Source: Octopus vulgaris
Taxonomy: Eukaryota
Direction of reading: 5' to 3'
Assembly: GCA_951406725.2 (NCBI GenBank)
Contig: OX597833.1
Span: forward strand, 38,006,001 to 38,070,000
DNA: 64,000 nt
This document shows positions 1-49,564 of the stretch, in pieces. The translations under genes were made by a program, and so were the position numbers. Numbering within the stretch: the first letter of the stretch is position 1; every line of letters starts with the position of its first letter. The notes under the pieces are model-generated. The model was not told the DNA's origin, did no database searches, and saw nothing but the letters and a program-made list of their open reading frames with translations.

Positions 1-61
1 GCTGATGATGGCTGCAGTTTTCCTTGCGGAAAATAACAGCTGAAACTAAGTTAGTACATGG
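1..61 (+). ncRNA. Type I hammerhead ribozyme, copy 1 (5' strand of helix I cut off by the window edge)
   Basis: g-CTGATGA-t-ggctg...cagct-GAAA-ctaagttag-TA-catgg. Confidence 0.85.
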
Positions 62-501
62 GTAATTATTTTATTTCGTATATTTTTCACTTGTTTATTG
101 CTAAGGTTTTGTGTTGAGTTTGATCTGAGAACATAATCTTTTGTGGAGAATGACGATTTGACGTCTATATCTAGCATGTTGACTGTCCACTTTTCGTGTT
201 CAGTCCTTAATTGGTATATATAAATATTTTAATCTTCGGATTCTTTTTTAATATGCTAGACCACTGGTCTTAATTGATAAATATCAATTTCTACCCTTAA
301 TTAATTTTATATAAATAAATGTTCTCTAACCGATAAATTAACTGCTGCTAATTATTAGCTGCAGGCTAGTTTTCTCGGGTCTCAACGCGCCAAAGTAAAG
401 GCATTTGAAAGATATATTCAAATGTAATAGGCTGAACTCCATGCACGCGATATTTCGGTATCGTGTTTGCATTTAGTCCAGCAAATTACATTTATAACGG
501 A

Positions 502-566
502 CCATGCTGATGATGGCTGCAGTTTTCCTTGCGGAAAATAACAGCTGAAACTAAGTTAGTACATGG
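502..566 (+). ncRNA. Type I hammerhead ribozyme, copy 2; predicted cleavage after GUA (A561)
   Basis: Helix I ccatg/catgg; core CTGATGA (507-513) plus an extra U; helix II ggctg/cagct extended by ttttcc-ttgc-ggaaaa; GAAA (547-550); helix III A-ctaa-g-ttag-T; H17 = A. Confidence 0.9.
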
Positions 567-1006
567 GTAATTATTTTATTTCGTATATTTTTCACTTGTT
601 TATTGCTAAGGTTTTGTGTTGAGTTTGATCTGAGAACATAATCTTTTGTGGAGAATGACGATTTGACGTCTATATCTAGCATGTTGACTGTCCACTTTTC
701 GTGTTCAGTCCTTAATTGGTATATATAAATATTTTAATCTTCGGATTCTTTTTTAATATGCTAGACCACTGGTCTTAATTGATAAATATCAATTTCTACC
801 CTTAATTAATTTTATATAAATAAATGTTCTCTAACCGATAAATTAACTGCTGCTAATTATTAGCTGCAGGCTAGTTTTCTCGGGTCTCAACGCGCCAAAG
901 TAAAGGCATTTGAAAGATATATTCAAATGTAATAGGCTGAACTCCATGCACGCGATATTTCGGTATCGTGTTTGCATTTAGTCCAGCAAATTACATTTAT
1001 AACAGA

Positions 1007-1071
1007 CCATGCTGATGATGGCTGCAGTTTTCCTTGCGGAAAATAACAGCTGAAACTAAGTTAGTACATGG
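1007..1071 (+). ncRNA. Type I hammerhead ribozyme, copy 3
   Basis: Identical to 502-566, shifted by 505 nt. Confidence 0.9.
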
Positions 1072-1511
1072 GTAATTATTTTATTTCGTATATTTTTCAC
1101 TTGTTTATTGCTAAGGTTTTGTGTTGAGTTTGATCTGAGAACATAATCTTTTGTGGAGAATGACGATTTGACGTCTATATCTAGCATGTTGACTGTCCAC
1201 TTTTCGTGTTCAGTCCTTAATTGGTATATATAAATATTTTAATCTTCGGATTCTTTTTTAATATGCTAGACCACTGGTCTTAATTGATAAATATCAATTT
1301 CTACCCTTAATTAATTTTATATAAATAAATGTTCTCTAACCGATAAATTAACTGCTGCTAATTATTAGCTGCAGGCTAGTTTTCTCGGGTCTCAACGCGC
1401 CAAAGTAAAGGCATTTGAAAGATATATTCAAATGTAATAGGCTGAACTCCATGCACGCGATATTTCAGTATCGTGTTTGCATTTAGTCCAGCAAATTACA
1501 TTTATAACGGA

Positions 1512-1576
1512 CCATGCTGATGATGGCTGCAGTTTTCCTTGCGGAAAATAACAGCTGAAACTAAGTTAGTACATGA
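1512..1576 (+). ncRNA. Type I hammerhead ribozyme, copy 4 (G>A at 1576 shortens helix I to 4 bp)
   Basis: Same core; 3' strand reads catga instead of catgg. Confidence 0.88.
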
Positions 1577-2016
1577 GTAATTATTTTATTTCGTATATTT
1601 TTCACTTGTTTATTGCTAAGGTTTTGTGTTGAGTTTGATCTGAGAACATAATCTTTTGTGGAGAATGACGATTTGACGTCTATATCTAGCATGTTGACTG
1701 TCCACTTTTCGTGTTCAGTCCTTAATTGGTATATATAAATATTTTAATCTTCGGATTCTTTTTTAATATGCTAGACCACTGGTCTTAATTGATAAATATC
1801 AATTTCTACCCTTAATTAATTTTATATAAATAAATGTTCTCTAACCGATAAATTAACTGCTGCTAATTATTAGCTGCAGGCTAGTTTTCTCGGGTCTTAA
1901 CGCGCCAAAGTAAAGGCATTTGAAAGATATATTCAAATGTAATAGGCTGAACTCCATGCACGCGATATTTCGGTATCGTGTTTGAATTTAGTCCAGCAAA
2001 TTACATTTATAACGGA

Positions 2017-2081
2017 CCATGCTGATGATGGCTGCAGTTTTCCTTGCGGAAAATAACAGCTGAAACTAAGTTAGTACATGG
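2017..2081 (+). ncRNA. Type I hammerhead ribozyme, copy 5
   Basis: Identical to 502-566. Confidence 0.9.
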
Positions 2082-2232
2082 GTAATTATTTTATTTCGTA
2101 TATTTTTCACTTGTTTATTGCTAAGGTTTTGTGTTGAGTTTGATCTGAGAACATAATCTTTTGTGGAGAATGACGATTTGACGTCTATATCTAGCATGTT
2201 GACTGTCCACTTTTCGTGTTCAGTCCTTAATT

Positions 2233-2276
<44 letters not shown>

Positions 2277-2362
2277 GCTTAGGAGTTCAGTAGAAGAGAC
2301 TGCTAAAAAAGTACCAGGTTTAAAAAAGAAAGTACTGGAGTTCATTTTTCAACTGAACCCTT

Positions 2363-2419
2363 CATGGCTGTGCACTAGCATGGCTGTGCACTAGCATGGC
2401 TGTGCACTAGCATGGCTGC
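2363..2419 (+). repeat. 16-bp tandem repeat (CATGGCTGTGCACTAG, about 3.5 copies) inside a SINE 3' fragment
   Basis: Read directly; flanks match the SINE tail (CAGCATGGC...AATGACTAAAACAGGTAAAAGA). Confidence 0.85.
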
Positions 2420-3029
2420 AGTTCAATGACTAAAACAGGTAAAAGATACAAGATACACCCAATACACACAAAGCTCACATTCAGGTCCTTAAATACAATT
2501 AGCAAACACTTGCACAAATATTTGCAAATAAGCTGGTTCAAATCCTGCCATAAGAATAATTTGGAGATGAAGTAGAGGCTTCCACAAGTAGAGGCTGCAG
2601 CACTAAATTCTTTATCACAAAATACCAATCCCTTTTGAATGCATCCACAACAAATGATACTGTCACCAGGGCCTTAGAATAACACCCATGCAAATATTAA
2701 AACAATATATTCAAAACAATCACCACAAGAATTTAATCAGAACAATTTCAATCACTACTATCATCCACAAGGAGTCACTTTTAGGTCAATTGACCATTTA
2801 AGTGGATTCCATCAGCATCCTGCTACTCTGGCATTGTTGTTGTTAAACTCAGGTCATGTAGAACTATAGCTAAAGGTTTTCTTGTGGAGTTTCAGAATTG
2901 CTCACCCACATAGGTTGTACTTTCTCCATTTGCGCTGGGATTTTTCATTTTTTTTTTTTTTGCACCATGCACTTCAAAATGAGGGTGGGAAGTCTTTTCT
3001 AAAAAAATTTTTTTTAATCTTTTCTTTAT

Positions 3030-3440
3030 TTTACTTTACTAGTTTCAGCTCAAGAGTTGTGGCCATGCTGGGGCACTGGCATTAGCTTTGCTAAACTTTC
3101 ACATCTTTTACTTGTTTCCCATCCTGGGACACTGCCTTGAAGAATTTTTAATCAAATGAATCAACTGGGTACTTATTTTTTTCTTTTAAGCCTGATAGTT
3201 ATTCTATCACTCTCTTTTGATGAACTGCTAAGTTATAGGGATATAAACACACCAACACTCATCAAGTGAAAGTGGGGGACAAACATAGACACATAATCAC
3301 ACACACACACATTCATACACACACGTACATACCTCCATCTACCAAATTCACTCATAAGCTTTGGTCAGCCGAGGTTATTGTAGTGGTATTGAACCCAGAA
3401 CAGTATGGTTAGAAAGCTTCTTACCACACAGCCATGCCCG
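3030..3440 (-). mobile_element. tRNA-derived SINE (major family), degraded
   Basis: Matches 42920-43436 in head (GGCTGTGTGGTAAG) and tail. Confidence 0.8.
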
Positions 3441-3804
3441 ACCATAGTTTTTAAACATTGCTCACCCCCATACCTTCATAACAGCCCTCACTTTTAGAAA
3501 ACATTTTCCTCCCTCACTTGTTATTATATTCCATATTCTGAAACAAATGTAATCCAAATTTTTTAGAGGAAGAAAAAAAAATTAAAATCCATGATTTTAA
3601 ACATGTCTTCTTCCTAAAACAGAAACCACCACTGAAATATTTTTTTTTAGCATTTTTTTCGTCATTCTATTATATCCTACTTGGAAATCTCATTTAAAAT
3701 AAAACAAAAATTCTTACTTCCCTTTCTTCATCATACAATTAAAAAAAATGTCAAACACTACAAATTGATGTGAGAAAAATTAAATTTGAATTTTGAAAGA
3801 AGTA

Positions 3805-4170
3805 CCGTATATACTTGAGGATAGGTCACACATATTTTACCAAAAATTTTGATAAAAATCAGGGTTGCAACCTTTCCACTCGACATCACAGGGATCTGAA
3901 ATAAACAGTGGTGTAGCAATAGTCAAGTTTTTTTATCAATTGGGTTACTTTCATAAAGCCACTTCCACAGAAATGTTTTAATATTTGCAAGCAAAGTTTT
4001 GAAATAAAGGTGAACATTTGATACTATTTAACAAATATTAGTTATATTTATGTTATAAGGGGGCCATTGTAACTCCCCAGAGTATAGTGCGACCTATGTG
4101 CAAGTCAACAACAAATACCTACTTTGACAACCCCAAACTAAGAGTGCAATCTATCTGCAAGAATATACGG
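3805..4170. mobile_element. MITE of the Tc1/mariner-pogo (Tc2-like) type
   Basis: TA|CCGTATATACTTGAGGATAG ... CTATCTGCAAGAATATACGG|TA: imperfect TIRs of about 20 bp with TA target duplication. Confidence 0.8.
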
Positions 4171-4682
4171 TACCTATAAAATGATAATTCTGGTCATTTA
4201 AAATGTAGAAAAGAATATTTTTGATAAAATATAATGGGATCAAAAATATATCTTGTTTTCCTTTCTCTCTATCAAATAACAACAATTAATCACAGTAGCC
4301 TCTTATTCTAAGTAAGATAGTTATATTTATTTTGGCTAATTTTTGGTTTGTGAGGAAGATAAAAAATTGGTTTGTAAAATTAAATTTGATTGGAATTATA
4401 TCAATGTAAATAAAGCCAGTGTTAATCAAGTCTTGCTTTTCTCTAATTTTTATGTCAAAGAAAAACGTTTTAACAGTACAGCAATAGTATAAAAGAAAAA
4501 CAACAAAAATAAAACACAAATATAAAAAAATTATTTTAATAAGGTAAGGTATAATGAAAAGATGAAGTTAAGAATTTTTTTTTGGTTTAAATATAAATTC
4601 TAAGTATTTCAAAATACGGAATATAATAAAATGGTGGGTTGGGTGCAGGGGTTAAAATACAAGTATTTTTCAGATCATTCCA

Positions 4683-4900
4683 TTTTACTCTTTTACTTGT
4701 TTCAGTCATTTGACTGTGGCCATGCTGGAGCACTGCCTTTTAGTCGAGTAAATCAACGCCAGGACTTATTCTTTGTAAGCCTAGTACTTATTCTATCAGT
4801 CTCTTGTTCCGAACTGCTAAGTTACGGGGACATAAACACACCAGCATCAAGCGATGTTGGGGGGACAAACACAGACACACAAACATATACACACACACAT
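4683..4900 (-). mobile_element. SINE 3' half (major family)
   Basis: TTTTACTTGTTTCAGTCATTTGACTGTGGCCATGCTGGAGCAC... is shared with the other copies. Confidence 0.85.
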
Positions 4901-5707
4901 GCAAGCAGTGGACTATTTCAAAGACTGTACGATGGGTTTTGAGGGAGATTAGGATGCAATTTTGAGTTGGATGAATGGCTGTGTAGAAGATCCCCTATTG
5001 ACTCATAATCAAAAGGGGTGTAAGATTTTATTCTCTCAGCATATCCCTATTACAAAAAAGCATTATTGTTGGAAATAGCAAAGTGACCAATAGCTGCACA
5101 TTACAGATGACCCGTCATTATTTTATAAGCAAAAATCAACATGGTATTGAAGAAGACAAAGCTTTAATGCATGAAGGAAACTATGGGAAAGAAAGAGAAT
5201 TGTGTTTGGACTTAATAGAAATAATAAGCAGTAATCAGCATGCAAACACCACCACAATTACCTCCCTTATATTTGTTTACTGGTTTATTCATACAAATAC
5301 AGGAAAACAGACAGAACCAGCAGTAGTTTATACTTTTAATAAATCAACTGGTCAGTAAGCATATCTCATTAACTCTATTTTGGTTTCATTTACACATAAA
5401 TGTTCAGGCAAGTTAGTTATTTCAATAACTTTATAATCAAATATTTTTCTGTAACTCATAAACAAGCAAAGTTGTCATCAACCACTATTATCTAATGAGC
5501 AAGCCTCTAGATGGTTACTGGCTTTGCTAGAAACAGTAGCCAAATCTCCCTCAAATCATGCTTTACTGGAGTATAAAATGGAAAGCCATATTAGATAATG
5601 CATTCCGTGACATCTCTCAAAAAGAAAACTGACCCCAACAGGAATGTATTTGATCAGCCTGTTCAAACACTAGCCATATCTCTCACAAATTTCACCTTAC
5701 ATATTAA

Positions 5708-12868: not shown

Positions 12869-12954
12869 ACTTTCCTGAAGAGAAGATTGCATTGTTTATA
12901 CCTTTTATTCTTTTGAATAGTATCAGTGGAATTTTCGAAACATATGTAGAAAGT
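12869..12954 (+). ncRNA. Type I hammerhead ribozyme (CUGAAGA core)
   Basis: actttc-CTGAAGA-gaagatt...aattttc-GAAA-catatg-TA-gaaagt; 6-bp helix I; palindromic helix III ACATATGT. Confidence 0.88.
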
Positions 12955-17831: not shown

Positions 17832-18132
17832 CACTATATGTTTTTTTTTCTTCACTTATTTATTACTGTTCTTATTTTATCATTCTAACTCATGTCCATT
17901 GTCTGAAAATCTTTCATCATACATCTGTGACCTCTGAAGAACAGAATGTGACCTCTGAAGAACAGAATGGAGTAAGTAAGAACAGAATGGAGTGTGTTTT
18001 CTTATAAACGAAAACAAAAAGTGTCGTTGAAGAGGTCACAGATGTATGACGAAAGATTTCTGGACAATGGACATGAATTAGAATAATAAAATAGAAACAG
18101 TAATAAACGAGTGAAGAGAAAAATATATAGTG
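17832..18132. repeat. Inverted repeat with arms of about 100 bp, from a dispersed repeat family
   Basis: 17832-17934 is the approximate reverse complement of 18031-18132. The same family occurs near 32250-32395, 41300-41520 and 49095-49140. Confidence 0.85.
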
Positions 18133-18674
18133 CATGTGCTCATTTGGGAAAAAGAAAAAAAATGACCATCCCCGAAATACAACAATATCTGTTTCAACAC
18201 ATGATTTCACATCAGGAATCTTACAAAACAAATAGATAAACAATTTTAGTTTGGCTGTAGAAACAAAATAAACTAAATGTTAACACTATGGATGTTTATC
18301 TCTCTCTATAAGCAGAAAAAAATGGGATCAATCTGAATAGTTTCAAGTCTCCTTCCACTTTCACCAAACAAACAGTACCCATATGCTGTACAGAGACGGA
18401 GATCAATTAATCAAACTGTATACGTTATACAAATATCTATACGCTTTTAACCTCTCCATGGACGTAAGATGAGTATTCAAAATGAGAGTGAATGGATATA
18501 AATTCCACATTTTCTACACACACAGATATAAAAACTTGTGGTGTGACCAGTTTGTTTGATCTAAACAGCAAGGCTAAAACAATATGTTTATCAACAAAAT
18601 ATACCACACAATGCATTTCATATACTCACACACACATAAATATACATATATCCATTGTATATATACATATATGC

Positions 18675-30683: not shown

Positions 30684-32126
30684 AAAGCCATAAGTCTTGT
30701 GAAATACAGCAACTTAGGTTTATTTGGCTAAAACATTAATTTATTTCACCATTTTTCAAGCTGAGAGCAAGAACATTAGTCAGTTGCTTTTTTAAGCAGG
30801 GAACACTCATAAGGAAGAAGACAAATAGCAAATAGAAAAACAACTGTGTGTGTGTGTATAAAACTATGTATATATGTATTTATGTATGTGTGTGTATATT
30901 ATAATTTATATGCATGTACATCATAATAAAATAACATTGTTAGTGTTCGCTGAAATGGTAAAATTACAGTTTAGGCATTGTTTTCTAATAACATGTTCTT
31001 AGTGTAATCATTAACTACTTAAATGAAACAGGTTTGGTTTTAATTCAAAGTTGGAATTTCAAACACTGCACACTTGTCAAAAACAGAAATAAAAGAAATA
31101 AATAATTTTTTTAAATGATTTTGCAGATAGCAATTATAATTCAAACAAAACTAAATTTCTATGAGTCTAAAAACCTGACCTGACATTTTTCTCCATACCT
31201 GAAACTTGATCTGTCAAAAATATAAAAAAGCAAAAACAAAAAAAATAAATAAATACAAAATGCACAGAATCTGATCTGAAACTAAAACAAATTATTACAA
31301 ATTTGTTTTAAATGAAGCCTGTACTAAGCAACAATTAAATAATGTTGCCTGATTATGGAAATTAAAAAGATAATAGTTTTATATTTTTCCATATATTTCA
31401 TATTGCTTTGTTTTTTCATCTTTTATTCTTCCTTTAATTATACATCAGTGAAAAAGAAAACTAATTAATAAAATTTATAAAATATTTAAATTGTTTAAAC
31501 TATATTTTGTTGTGATTTGGGTATTTTGGGGAATTTTTATTTTTCCTGGTTTTCTTTTTACGTTGAAGACCATCAGTATCTTCCCTTGAATTCTTGTTTT
31601 TAGTTTCTTTTTTTGTTGTTTCCATTATTGCTTTTTTATTCTTATCCGGGTCAAGTCCGATTGAATAAACCTATAATCAAACGCCTTTTGGTCTTGTCCT
31701 CCCTTATTTTGTTCTTATACAGAATTAATTAATTAATTAATTCTCACACAGTGTGTTTATGTTATGGAATGTATTGATCAATTGATTTCATTTTATAACA
31801 CAATTTCAAAATAACAACACCATTAATTATAGGTTTCCAATGAACCAATCACTGGCTCACAACATTTCTGACAGCGATAGTAACAAGGGAGAGTCTATAA
31901 GCCAGTGCACAAGACTCTGTTCTTACAAAAGATTTCATTCAAAGAGTACTGGTTCTTCACTGAGTTTTCTATCCTACACTGACCTACCTTGTTTAAAGAT
32001 ATACATTTACATGCATATATCTTTATCATCATAAACATATATAGTTAATCCAAACACGAAAACACAACGTGAGGACGTGGAACAAGCATAGTGTTATTGG
32101 ATGCTCAGGAAAGGAAAGAAAGGAGA

Positions 32127-32161
32127 ATTTAACGTTTCAAGCGGAGCTCTTCATCAGAAAC
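32127..32161 (-). ncRNA. Minimal type I hammerhead (Penelope-type)
   Basis: Minus gttt-CTGATGA-a-gagc-tcc-gctt-GAAA-cg-TT-aaat; loopless palindromic helix III ACGT. Confidence 0.72.
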
Positions 32162-32410
32162 ATAGGAAGAGGAAAGATCCAAGGAAGGGAAGACGGAGGA
32201 AAAAAAATCGCCATACACACACATATTTCATATATTTCTAGACGGTCTTTCTTTTTGCCAAATAAACATACACACTAAAAACTCGTTCTTCACTTCACCA
32301 TTGTTATTATCCTTATTTTAGTATCCTTTCTCTAAACTCTTTTATCACACATCCTGTGACCTCTTCAGCAACTCTCCATCCCACACGTCTCCTGTTTGTT
32401 TAGTTCACAT

Positions 32411-40351: not shown

Positions 40352-41519
40352 TATTAAAATGGTGAGCTGGCAGAATTGTTAGCGCACTGGGCAAAATGCT
40401 TAGTGTCATTTCATCCTTCCTTATGTTCTGAGTTCAAATTCCACCAAGATTGACTTTACCTGTTATCCTTTCAGGGTGGATAAAATAAATACCAATTGAA
40501 CACTGGGGTCAATGTAATGGACTAGCCCCCTTCCCAAAAATTTCAGGCCTTGTGCCTATAGTAGAAAGAATTATTATTATTATTATGATGATGATGATGA
40601 TGATGATGAAAGCAATGGATTGGCTGAATCATTAGAACACCAAATAAAAGTAGCCCTATCATAGTAGTGATACCATATGCAAGGCCAGCTAAACAGCCTA
40701 TAGACCCCTCAGGCCAAGCAACGCACTGGTCCCCAACATACCCAAGCACAGCATACATATGTTAGCATTAGGCCCCTACACTCATGGAGCACCAGGACAG
40801 CTACCCAGTGTGCCCATGCCCCAAAACAACAGTGATAATAGGAAGAGATATAGCTCAATAGTATTTGTTAAAATCATTCTTATTAACACCGACACACACA
40901 CACACACACTCAAACACACACACACACACATACATACACTTTTTGGTTCCTCCTGGCCTAACTTGTCTTGTTATTTAGTCCCAAATCAGTCTTCACCAAA
41001 CAAACTTGTTACTAAAGGCATTCCATATATGACCACCACCTTTTTTGTATATCCAGGACTACACTGTTCAATATGTCCTTCCATTTAAGATAACAGAGTG
41101 TGATTTAAGGGAGATTGACTGCTATTTCTTATCAGATCAAACGATCCTGTACAGCCCCCTTCACTAACCTGCCCTACTTCTCTTTGTATTAGGTACTATA
41201 TTTCCGGTATCTTCCCCTTGGGAGAGAAAAGTAGAATAATGTAGTTTGATTTGTTTTTCAGACTTAATTAAAAATTAGCAGAATTATGCATAATAAAAGC
41301 TAAATTACATTTATGTCTTTGTTTTGCAAGATTCCTCAGGTGAAATCATATGTTGAAATAGATATGGTTATATTTGGATTTGGGGATGGCTATATTTTGC
41401 CAACTAAACACATGCGCCATATATTTGGTCTTCACTTCAGCTTTATTGTTATTCTTATTTTAGTATGCTTTGTCTGGAAATCTTTTGTCACACATTCTGT
41501 GACCTCTTCACCAACTCTC

Positions 41520-48910: not shown

Positions 48911-49095
48911 AATATTCTACTGTGTCTGGGGAGAGTCATTTTCTTTTTGTGCCTTATAATTTAAGATACTCACCAGTAAAATTTCCACTTATTTTTATTT
49001 TCCTAAAATAAGAAATAACAGGAAATTTTACCAGCGAGTGTGTTAAATTATAAGGTACAAAAAGATAATGACTCTCCCCAGACACAATAGAATAT
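48911..49095. repeat. Long imperfect hairpin (arms of about 90 bp)
   Basis: ATATTCTACTGTGTCTGGGGAGAGTCATT...AAATTTCC versus GGAAATTTT...AATGACTCTCCCCAGACACAATAGAATAT. Confidence 0.9.
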
Positions 49096-49564
49096 GTTTC
49101 AACACACGAATTCACATAAAGAATCTTGCAAGCCAAAGCCAAAATATATTTTAATTATCATTAATATTTTTAATGTTGTTATTGTTGTTATTATTATTAT
49201 TGTTATTATTATTATTATTATTATTTGCATTCATGATTGTGAGAATGAAGTTTCAATTCCTAGACCAGGTTGAGCAAAACATTTCATCTCATATTGCTCT
49301 CCAATCACTTCCACACCTAACATGTGATATACCATGCACCTGTACAGGCAATGGCAATTTGATGAAGACATCGAGCTAATGTACAGAATATACATCTGAT
49401 CACTATAAACAAATCATTTGTGCAGGTTGTTCAGCATAAGCTGAACACTCATATGCTGTCTTCAATAGGAGTCATCATCATCATCATCATCATCATAGAT
49501 ATTCCTATACTCTTTTAACTGTTCTAGCCTTTAGTCATGGTCAAATGTATCTTTTTTTAAATAT

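Follow-up and report, generated by a model that had tools for sequence, protein, structure and literature searches.

A two-armed tandem repeat with hammerhead motifs in (TA)n tracts of Octopus vulgaris: a candidate retrozyme with the insertion layout of Penelope-like elements

A 505-nt unit is repeated at the start of the window

The window analysed here, 64,000 nucleotides of Octopus vulgaris contig OX597833.1 (positions 38,006,001 to 38,070,000, forward strand), starts with 4.4 copies of a 505-nt unit on the plus strand (1..2242), the rest of this array lying upstream. CTGATGA cores are found at positions 2, 507, 1012, 1517 and 2022, that is, at a spacing of 505 nt, and the GAAA..TA ends at 56, 561, 1066, 1571 and 2076. 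The four full units in the window differ from one another by 1-4 nt in pairwise comparisons, and thus the five evenly spaced hammerhead cores in near-identical units, which an earlier note on this DNA had described from the letters alone, are borne out. The match of the last, partial unit runs to 2242, inside a (TA)n tract at 2235..2274, (TA)20, which is the right half of a target microsatellite and overlaps site A (see below) of that unit; the left half lies upstream of the window, beside an inverted arm. Since element and target both have TATATATA at this place, the right end of the element can be placed only to 2235-2242. The earlier note had given an extent of 1..2236 for an array that ends in (TA)n. 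The tract at the right edge is indeed present; however, the array goes on upstream, its right end is 2235-2242, and the tract makes up one half of the site into which a two-armed element was inserted.

In the unit numbering used here, unit position 1 corresponds to window position 562, and the monomer, from cleavage site to cleavage site, is 562..1066 (plus strand, 505 nt). Its GC content is 33%, within the low-GC criterion for non-LTR retrozymes (<45-50%), and the monomer folds into a more stable structure than its shuffled versions (z -5.97).

The unit carries a predicted type I hammerhead ribozyme

Five hammerheads were annotated on the plus strand of the window: at 1..61 (the 5' strand of helix I lies just upstream of the window), 502..566, 1007..1071, 1512..1576 and 2017..2081, with predicted cleavage after A56, A561, A1066, A1571 and A2076, respectively. 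Helix I is CCAUG/CAUGG (5 bp, left at 4 bp in the fourth copy by G1576A), one additional U follows A9, and helix II is GGCUG/CAGCU (5 bp) with a 7-bp extension. Helix III consists of 4 bp and a 3-nt loop and is near-palindromic, the self-pairing of its strand amounting to -8.6 kcal/mol. The predicted cleavage triplet is GUA. All sequence features of a type I hammerhead are therefore found (CUGANGA, GAAA, the NUH core, and helices I-III with helix I open), and the unit has no long ORF, in agreement with the initial description of one type I hammerhead per non-coding tandem unit.

For the 71 nt concerned, the hammerhead fold has an energy of -19.0 kcal/mol and the MFE fold lies 2 kcal/mol lower; the hammerhead descriptor matched only one of 10,000 dinucleotide shuffles of the unit. 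In an Rfam scan of window positions 1-5000, two chance matches only were obtained and no hammerhead family at E<=1, so that the check by Rfam hammerhead models, which had been proposed with the original description, was negative. This silence lowers the case for membership of Rfam families, not that for a hammerhead fold. Judging from the sequence, the 505-nt RNA unit would probably cut itself.

The array is one arm of a 4.5-kb insertion

The whole insertion (locus L021 in our numbering) is 4.5 kb long. Its minus arm of 2.2 units and its plus arm of 6.6 units meet head to head within a (TA)n tract, which is found on both outer sides. The plus arm measures 3346 nt and begins at G000:C20:38004897, which is 1103 nt upstream of the window, and the inverted arm (1118 nt) occupies G000:C20:38003770-38004887; 9 extra nt lie at the head-to-head joint. 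There are nine ribozyme cores, seven on the plus arm and two on the inverted arm, one of the latter with a 2-nt insertion in GAAA. No stop-to-stop frame of at least 80 aa was found in L021 2770-7242, and tblastn of three Penelope-like element (PLE) proteins against this locus gave neither a match nor an adjoining PLE ORF. The ORF scan and tblastn, with no RT or GIY-YIG ORF at this locus, thus uphold the earlier preference for a retrozyme over multiplied pLTRs. A 175-aa frame 2 kb upstream of the element (L021:259-786) resembles, in its motifs, a fragment of a Tc1/mariner transposase.

The family is young and dispersed

We searched the genome (2.8 Gb, 227 contigs) with the 505-nt unit and obtained 218 matches from the 38 candidates scored out of 1706. 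The exact 24-mer of the ribozyme has 379 genomic copies, against 0 for a reversed control; as the first 100 listed matches of this 24-mer belong to 41 loci (grouped by hand), this suggests about 155 loci in the genome. We mapped 58 loci, about a third: the 38 best-scoring ones and 20 from the first 100 pattern matches, these mostly with one or two matches, a sample biased towards long, young copies. A short diverged piece in L061, of a different subfamily, was left out of the counts. The family is young and dispersed, and the 379 exact copies speak strongly against the assembly artefact that the earlier note had named as an alternative.

Contigs from four sequencing runs cover 30, 30, 30 and 27 of 30 unit bins; the RNA origin of these runs is a guess, and the coverage is silent on expression and circles. 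In three of the runs, contigs join the end of the unit to its start, which fits a tandem as well as a circle, and the same is true of a 535-nt (505+30) cyclic contig in run X2, itself only guessed to be RNA. The differences seen in the contigs of these runs are mainly A>G and T>C (23 of 36 places in run X6). Inverted arms would form long duplex RNA, which could be edited; other copies or alleles explain the differences equally.

Insertions have two fixed outer ends, one of each kind

Two inverted arms were found in 41 of the 58 loci and one arm in the other 17. In all 41 two-arm loci, one of the outer ends lies at site A (unit 159-166, TATATATA; window 720..727, plus strand) and the other at site B (unit 252-257, TATATA; window 813..818, plus strand), and there is one tail. 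The tail is the 91 nt between these sites (728..818, plus strand); it stands at the outer end of one arm only and is the equivalent of the Penelope 'tail'. Within it, a hairpin motif (757..778, plus strand) is kept in related families and may represent an RT-binding signal. Outer ends at site A fall at unit 138-171, mostly 165-166, and those at site B at unit 241-260, mostly 257; the single-arm loci have an A end in ten cases and a B end in seven. Both sites are candidate priming sites, and (TA)4 was present within 25 nt of 94 of the 99 outer ends. A and B are both TA stretches of the unit, but no outer end in this set lies at a third TA stretch, of 6 nt, at unit 356-361. With free choice of site, A/A or B/B pairs should occur half the time, whereas A/B was seen in 41 of 41.

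The inner ends of the arms are scattered over the unit, and the 41 arm junctions comprise 18 overlaps (up to 9 nt), 5 blunt joints and 18 fillers (up to 22 nt). The arrays are short, with at most 7.1 units per arm. In the mapped loci the arms consist of the unit only, with no LTR-internal-LTR layout, and in all 58 the unit leads from the tail back to the next ribozyme with no ORF between. The flanking TA runs sum to a median of 59 nt, against a length-weighted background mean of 46 nt; with (TA)n on both flanks, no borders can be drawn for a target duplication, which in non-LTR retrozymes exceeds 4 bp when present. We considered whether the (TA)n is necessarily added by the RT. This is not required, since the site A end of L024 joins (CAT)n directly, with no TA run; 2-3 nt of overlap can be enough for priming, and a TA tract need not be added or present in every case.

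Short repeats of the site B end were also observed: a 13-nt duplication in L021:2770-2800, a 22-nt additional piece behind a TA run in L050:5605-5664, and three stacked tail pieces in L161. They may stem from priming that was aborted and begun anew, as slipping RTs do, or from one target having been used several times.

Related families keep the ribozyme stems with different sequences

Homology to the 505-nt unit is found in a 546-nt family (z 29) and, at a weak level, in a 491-nt family (z 6); further relatives are a fourth family and a 94%-identical subfamily. The related set comprises the 491-nt and 546-nt families, a 504-nt subfamily whose helix III is perfectly palindromic, and an older, abundant family; related copies lie at L107:421-2181, L141, L160 and L165-L168. 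The related families also have two-armed copies in (TA)n, and the tail hairpin motif has 1786 matches in the genome, compared to 0 for a reversed control. Four hammerhead families keep helices I-III with different sequences, and three of them have the same tail motif as the 505-nt unit. Helix I is CCAUG/CAUGG, GAUUGUA/UGCAAUU, AUUUCUUA/UAAGAAAU or GAUCACA/UGUGAUU, and helix II is GGCUG/CAGCU, GGCC/GGCC, AUCUG/CAGAU or GUUGC/GCAAC. The hammerhead descriptor failed on one of the five copies tried (L160). The stems kept across families are the best evidence for selection on the ribozyme.

These data bear on another explanation, namely satellite DNA with a hammerhead-like motif arising by chance, or an artefact of assembly. 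The silence of Rfam agrees with it, and near-identical repeats next to microsatellites are hard to assemble. However, the motif was recovered from shuffled sequence at the low rate given above, the stems covary across families, the 379 exact copies lie on many chromosomes with unique flanks, and contigs of other runs join unit end to unit start. We regard this explanation as extremely improbable.

More canonical hammerhead motifs, in unrelated sequence, were seen in the flanks of L114, L118, L119, L129 and L133, those of L119 being an inverted pair. The genome seems rich in hammerhead families.

Both arms of an insertion tend to have the same variants

Per shared site, there are 0.0018 differences between the two arms of a locus, compared to 0.0080 in shuffled pairs (39 pairs; none of 5000 shuffles was as low). 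Five subfamily markers agree between the arms in 20/20, 23/23, 24/24, 37/37 and 37/37 loci, and in eight loci rare variants are common to both arms. For example, at the locus of the window G is found at unit 48 in both arms, while 88 of 91 arms have T, and a 37-nt duplication is present in both arms of L078. RNA editing as the origin of the shared variants was rejected, as the recurrent changes contain no excess of A>G (6/44). It is likely that both arms were copied from one RNA template.

One way to obtain such arms is a single RNA-primed cDNA, the inverted arm being either a fold-back or the product of LINE-type twin priming on linear RNA with a fixed 3' end. In L1 twin priming, two target ends prime cDNA, resulting in inverted segments joined by microhomology. 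Either process accounts for the common variants, lengths are compatible with copying of one arm from the other in 34 of 41 loci, and the B arm of the insertion described above stops at unit 170, beside site A. Fold-back is impossible for the other 7 of 41, in which neither arm can be a copy of the other; L069, for instance, has non-overlapping arms. Moreover, a B arm ending no more than 20 nt from site A was seen in 4 of 41 loci, against 3.3 expected by chance, and the longer arm may be either of the two (16 vs 25 loci). The octopus insertions differ from L1 twin priming in their two fixed start sites, in the lack of a poly(A) tail, in arms that may both be longer than a unit, and in a first arm whose end is not at the second priming site. 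A single primed cDNA is thus an improbable source of the two arms.

In 20 of 41 loci, each of the two arms is more than a unit in length. The 192 crossings of the cleavage site are free of indels, a result that speaks for a covalent circle or an uncut multimer rather than for template jumps. The main rival of the circle is the uncut linear multimer, transcribed from an existing array and inserted by the same PLE machinery, with the ribozyme being slow or serving another step and DNA duplication enlarging the arrays. The seamless junctions fit it equally well, adjacent units have common variants, and the main substrate of a lizard PLE is uncut RNA (PMC11167929). In six loci (L024, L027, L028, L038, L045, L073) variants occupy two adjacent units or one arm only, which points to later duplication, assembly polishing or different templates. 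However, the subfamily markers and rare variants are found throughout both arms, in each of their units, and with a multimer this calls for a one-unit bottleneck and then amplification at some insertion; inverted arms are not readily homogenised by unequal exchange; and the ribozyme stems are kept across families. Furthermore, one variant alternates unit by unit, fitting 4 of 4 rounds in L041 and 6 of 7 in L057, a pattern that a dimer circle would give. Taken together, we lean towards a covalent circle as the single template, while an uncut multimer is an unlikely, though serious, competitor.

Penelope-like elements of the octopus genome use the same layout

A PLE fragment in the flank of one locus led to its family, which is young, has 4681 candidates and contains open frames of 1310-1312 aa. 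One copy, L098:3291-7220, has an intact ORF of 1309 aa with a long Asn/Ser-rich insert; the family, also found at L096-L097, has thousands of near-identical copies, tandems of about 4585 nt with up to three units, and two-armed insertions in (TA)n. The 1309-aa protein contains an RT (YVDD), a CX4CXXC finger and a GIY-YIG-type end. The RT and GIY-YIG assignments are based on motifs and relatives, a Pfam search with this protein giving no match, and the clade was assigned by the CX2-5CxxC motif, as described in the accessible part of PMC8557442. The pLTR of this PLE has a hammerhead-like motif. Its ends lie at 686 and 742-745 of the 4584-nt unit, 56-59 nt apart and just inside the ORF start. Among 32 stretches, both ends were scored in 13 insertions, all of which have one end of each kind. 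The link to Penelope-like elements made in the earlier note is thereby backed by an insertion layout common to the retrozyme and the 1309-aa PLE.

Two fixed ends in (TA)n, about 60 nt apart, were also seen in another young PLE family of this type (L153-L157, L159), and inspection of its 3' region by eye revealed no canonical hammerhead. A further young family (L117, L121-L135) has an intact 781-aa frame with RT and GIY-YIG, and its 3' region contains a hammerhead-like motif with U and A at C3/G8 and a palindromic ACAUGU helix III. We found no convincing nucleotide similarity of the 505-nt unit to the 1309-aa PLE, the second PLE of this type, the 781-aa family or four fragmentary families, i.e., no pLTR homology to a named PLE among the families sampled. 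Local-alignment z-scores of up to 7.4 (the second hammerhead family against L137; 4.5 for the 505-nt unit) turned out on inspection to be gappy AT-rich matches. The DNA upstream of seven copies of the fourth hammerhead family contained no PLE ORF.

Another conceivable source is an autonomous PLE with its ORF at some other place or overlooked by us, the units being its 5'-truncated ends or its pLTRs in multiplied form. In favour of it, the arms are arranged as in PLE insertions, the loci examined are about a third, and the two ends of the 1309-aa PLE fall just inside its ORF start. On the other hand, none of the 58 loci has an ORF between tail and next ribozyme, no PLE ORF adjoins the arms, and the PLE fragment in L027 is set apart from the array by another insertion. 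We therefore consider this origin very unlikely. A retrozyme driven by a PLE, in contrast, is what we hold to be very probable.

The window also contains old remnants (73-92% identity) of the 1309-aa family or its relatives, derived from the pLTR and the start of the ORF, at 18121-18243, 41306-41461 and 49068-49136. A minimal hammerhead-like motif (CUGAUGA, an additional A, a 4-bp helix II, GAAACGUU) lies on the minus strand at 32110-32165 with its core at 32157; it is of the type found in PLE pLTRs, and tblastn shows no nearby PLE ORF. A weaker hammerhead-like match was noticed at 12875.

Comparison with known systems

Metazoan non-LTR retrozymes, as presented in the available text of PMC7229834 (coral, mussel and axolotl) and of a vertebrate survey (bioRxiv 10.64898/2026.07.22.740005), resemble the octopus element in their short, low-GC, non-coding tandem units, in having one type I hammerhead per unit, in their dispersed dimers to multimers and in the presence of PLEs in the same genome. 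The octopus element agrees with every sequence-level criterion of a non-LTR retrozyme that we examined (those given in the accessible part of PMC7229834). Its 505 nt exceed the approximately 170-400 nt of the invertebrate retrozymes studied; nevertheless, they are inside the 51-972 bp given in the accessible text of the 2026 preprint (bioRxiv 10.64898/2026.07.22.740005), and so the initial view of the unit as unusually long was not sustained. The same text gives a sequence link of Xenopus retrozymes to a PLE pLTR, whereas none was found for the octopus unit, and reports in vitro cleavage for one of nine frog retrozyme dimers. An inverted second arm, fixed ends or a microsatellite target are not described in the portions of the metazoan retrozyme papers at hand (the word 'inverted' is absent from that of PMC7229834). 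Cleavage and circles have been demonstrated for the published metazoan retrozymes, according to the same portions, whereas for the octopus family both are predictions from the DNA.

With respect to insertion, the available part of PMC8557442 lists inverted truncated copies, a tail that is often one-sided, and a microsatellite bias as traits of EN+ PLEs. PLEs start internally at two sites bounding the tail, and in vitro both strands are cut and extended, with a dimer being predicted (PMC11167929). In vitro, the lizard PLE uses uncut RNA, does not need ribozyme activity and chooses start sites with no strand preference (PMC11167929). EN+ PLEs of the Neptune/Nematis type and Poseidon PAc of Anolis have tails of 30-40 nt, as far as the text at hand of PMC8557442, PMC11167929 and PMC4209133 goes, in comparison to 91 nt in octopus; they code for an ORF, whereas the octopus insertion has none. 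The octopus ends overlap the target by 2-8 nt of TA, while the start site of PAc has no homology to the DNA that is cut, and the strict one-of-each pairing of ends in octopus differs from the lack of strand preference of PAc in vitro (PMC11167929). The octopus element inserts like a PLE while not being an autonomous one, as there is no ORF for RT and GIY-YIG between pLTRs.

Arrays of hammerhead units are also known in other contexts. The hammerhead satellites of newts, schistosomes and cave crickets have tandem units with a dimer-type helix III, and the cricket unit is about 500 bp long. Compared to these satellites, the octopus arrays are short (up to the 7.1 units per arm given above) and each is a separate insertion. 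The newt satellite is mentioned in the accessible part of PMC7229834, and 235 Rfam hammerhead matches are given for a squid genome in that of PMC6962438. In the literature searched, which consisted largely of titles and abstracts, outside subscription journals, supplements and Repbase/Dfam, we found no cephalopod retrozyme and no inverted or microsatellite-targeted retrozyme insertion.

A model of insertion

The best overall explanation, which we judge likely, is a young, non-autonomous non-LTR retrozyme that is mobilised in trans by an EN+ PLE. Read-through transcripts would be cut after GUA into 505-nt monomers, by monomer or dimer hammerheads, and part of the monomers would be ligated into circles. 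The RT/GIY-YIG protein of a PLE would bind the RNA near the tail hairpin and cut both strands of a (TA)n tract, whereupon each DNA 3' end would pair with a few nt of UA repeat and prime cDNA. On the same template, one cDNA would start at site A and the other at site B; each would extend to a differing length, in many cases passing round the unit more than once, and the two cDNA ends would finally be joined with an overlap or filler of a few nt. Counted against this explanation are a partner with no sequence link among the PLE families sampled, the silence of Rfam, the 17 one-armed loci out of 58, and the 34 of 41 loci compatible with copying of one arm from the other.

A more specific form of this explanation is a coupled double rolling-circle reaction. 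Here, a dimer of the PLE RT would hold one 505-nt circle at two fixed sites, with one site given to each cut strand; both cDNAs would go round the same circle, sometimes a dimer circle (L041, L057), and would then be joined. We put this form forward tentatively, its chances being somewhat below even.

Implications for retrozymes and Penelope-like elements

The retrozyme class, its size range and the PLE proposal are already in print, and the octopus element is an ordinary retrozyme in a new host group; within the literature searched, the newly described part is the insertion footprint, that is, the paired ends and the common template. Integration of animal retrozymes, including via circles, has been proposed and is undemonstrated as of the accessible text of PMC7229834, and the 2026 preprint, in its available part, builds the case for PLEs on co-occurrence and pLTR phylogeny and leaves the mechanism open (bioRxiv 10.64898/2026.07.22.740005). 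The octopus family itself carries the insertion signature of PLEs, in a genome with intact young PLE ORFs, and this layout, as read from the DNA, lends support to the proposal that PLEs are the carriers of retrozymes. With template, start sites, target and candidate enzymes named, the integration question becomes testable in vitro, and the strict pairing of ends constrains the mechanism of PLEs as well. If the double rolling-circle form is true, the octopus insertions would provide the first footprint in a genome that links animal retrozymes with PLE enzymes, at least four related octopus ribozyme circles would be ready substrates, and the tandem, inverted and tail structures of PLEs would be explained as one reaction.
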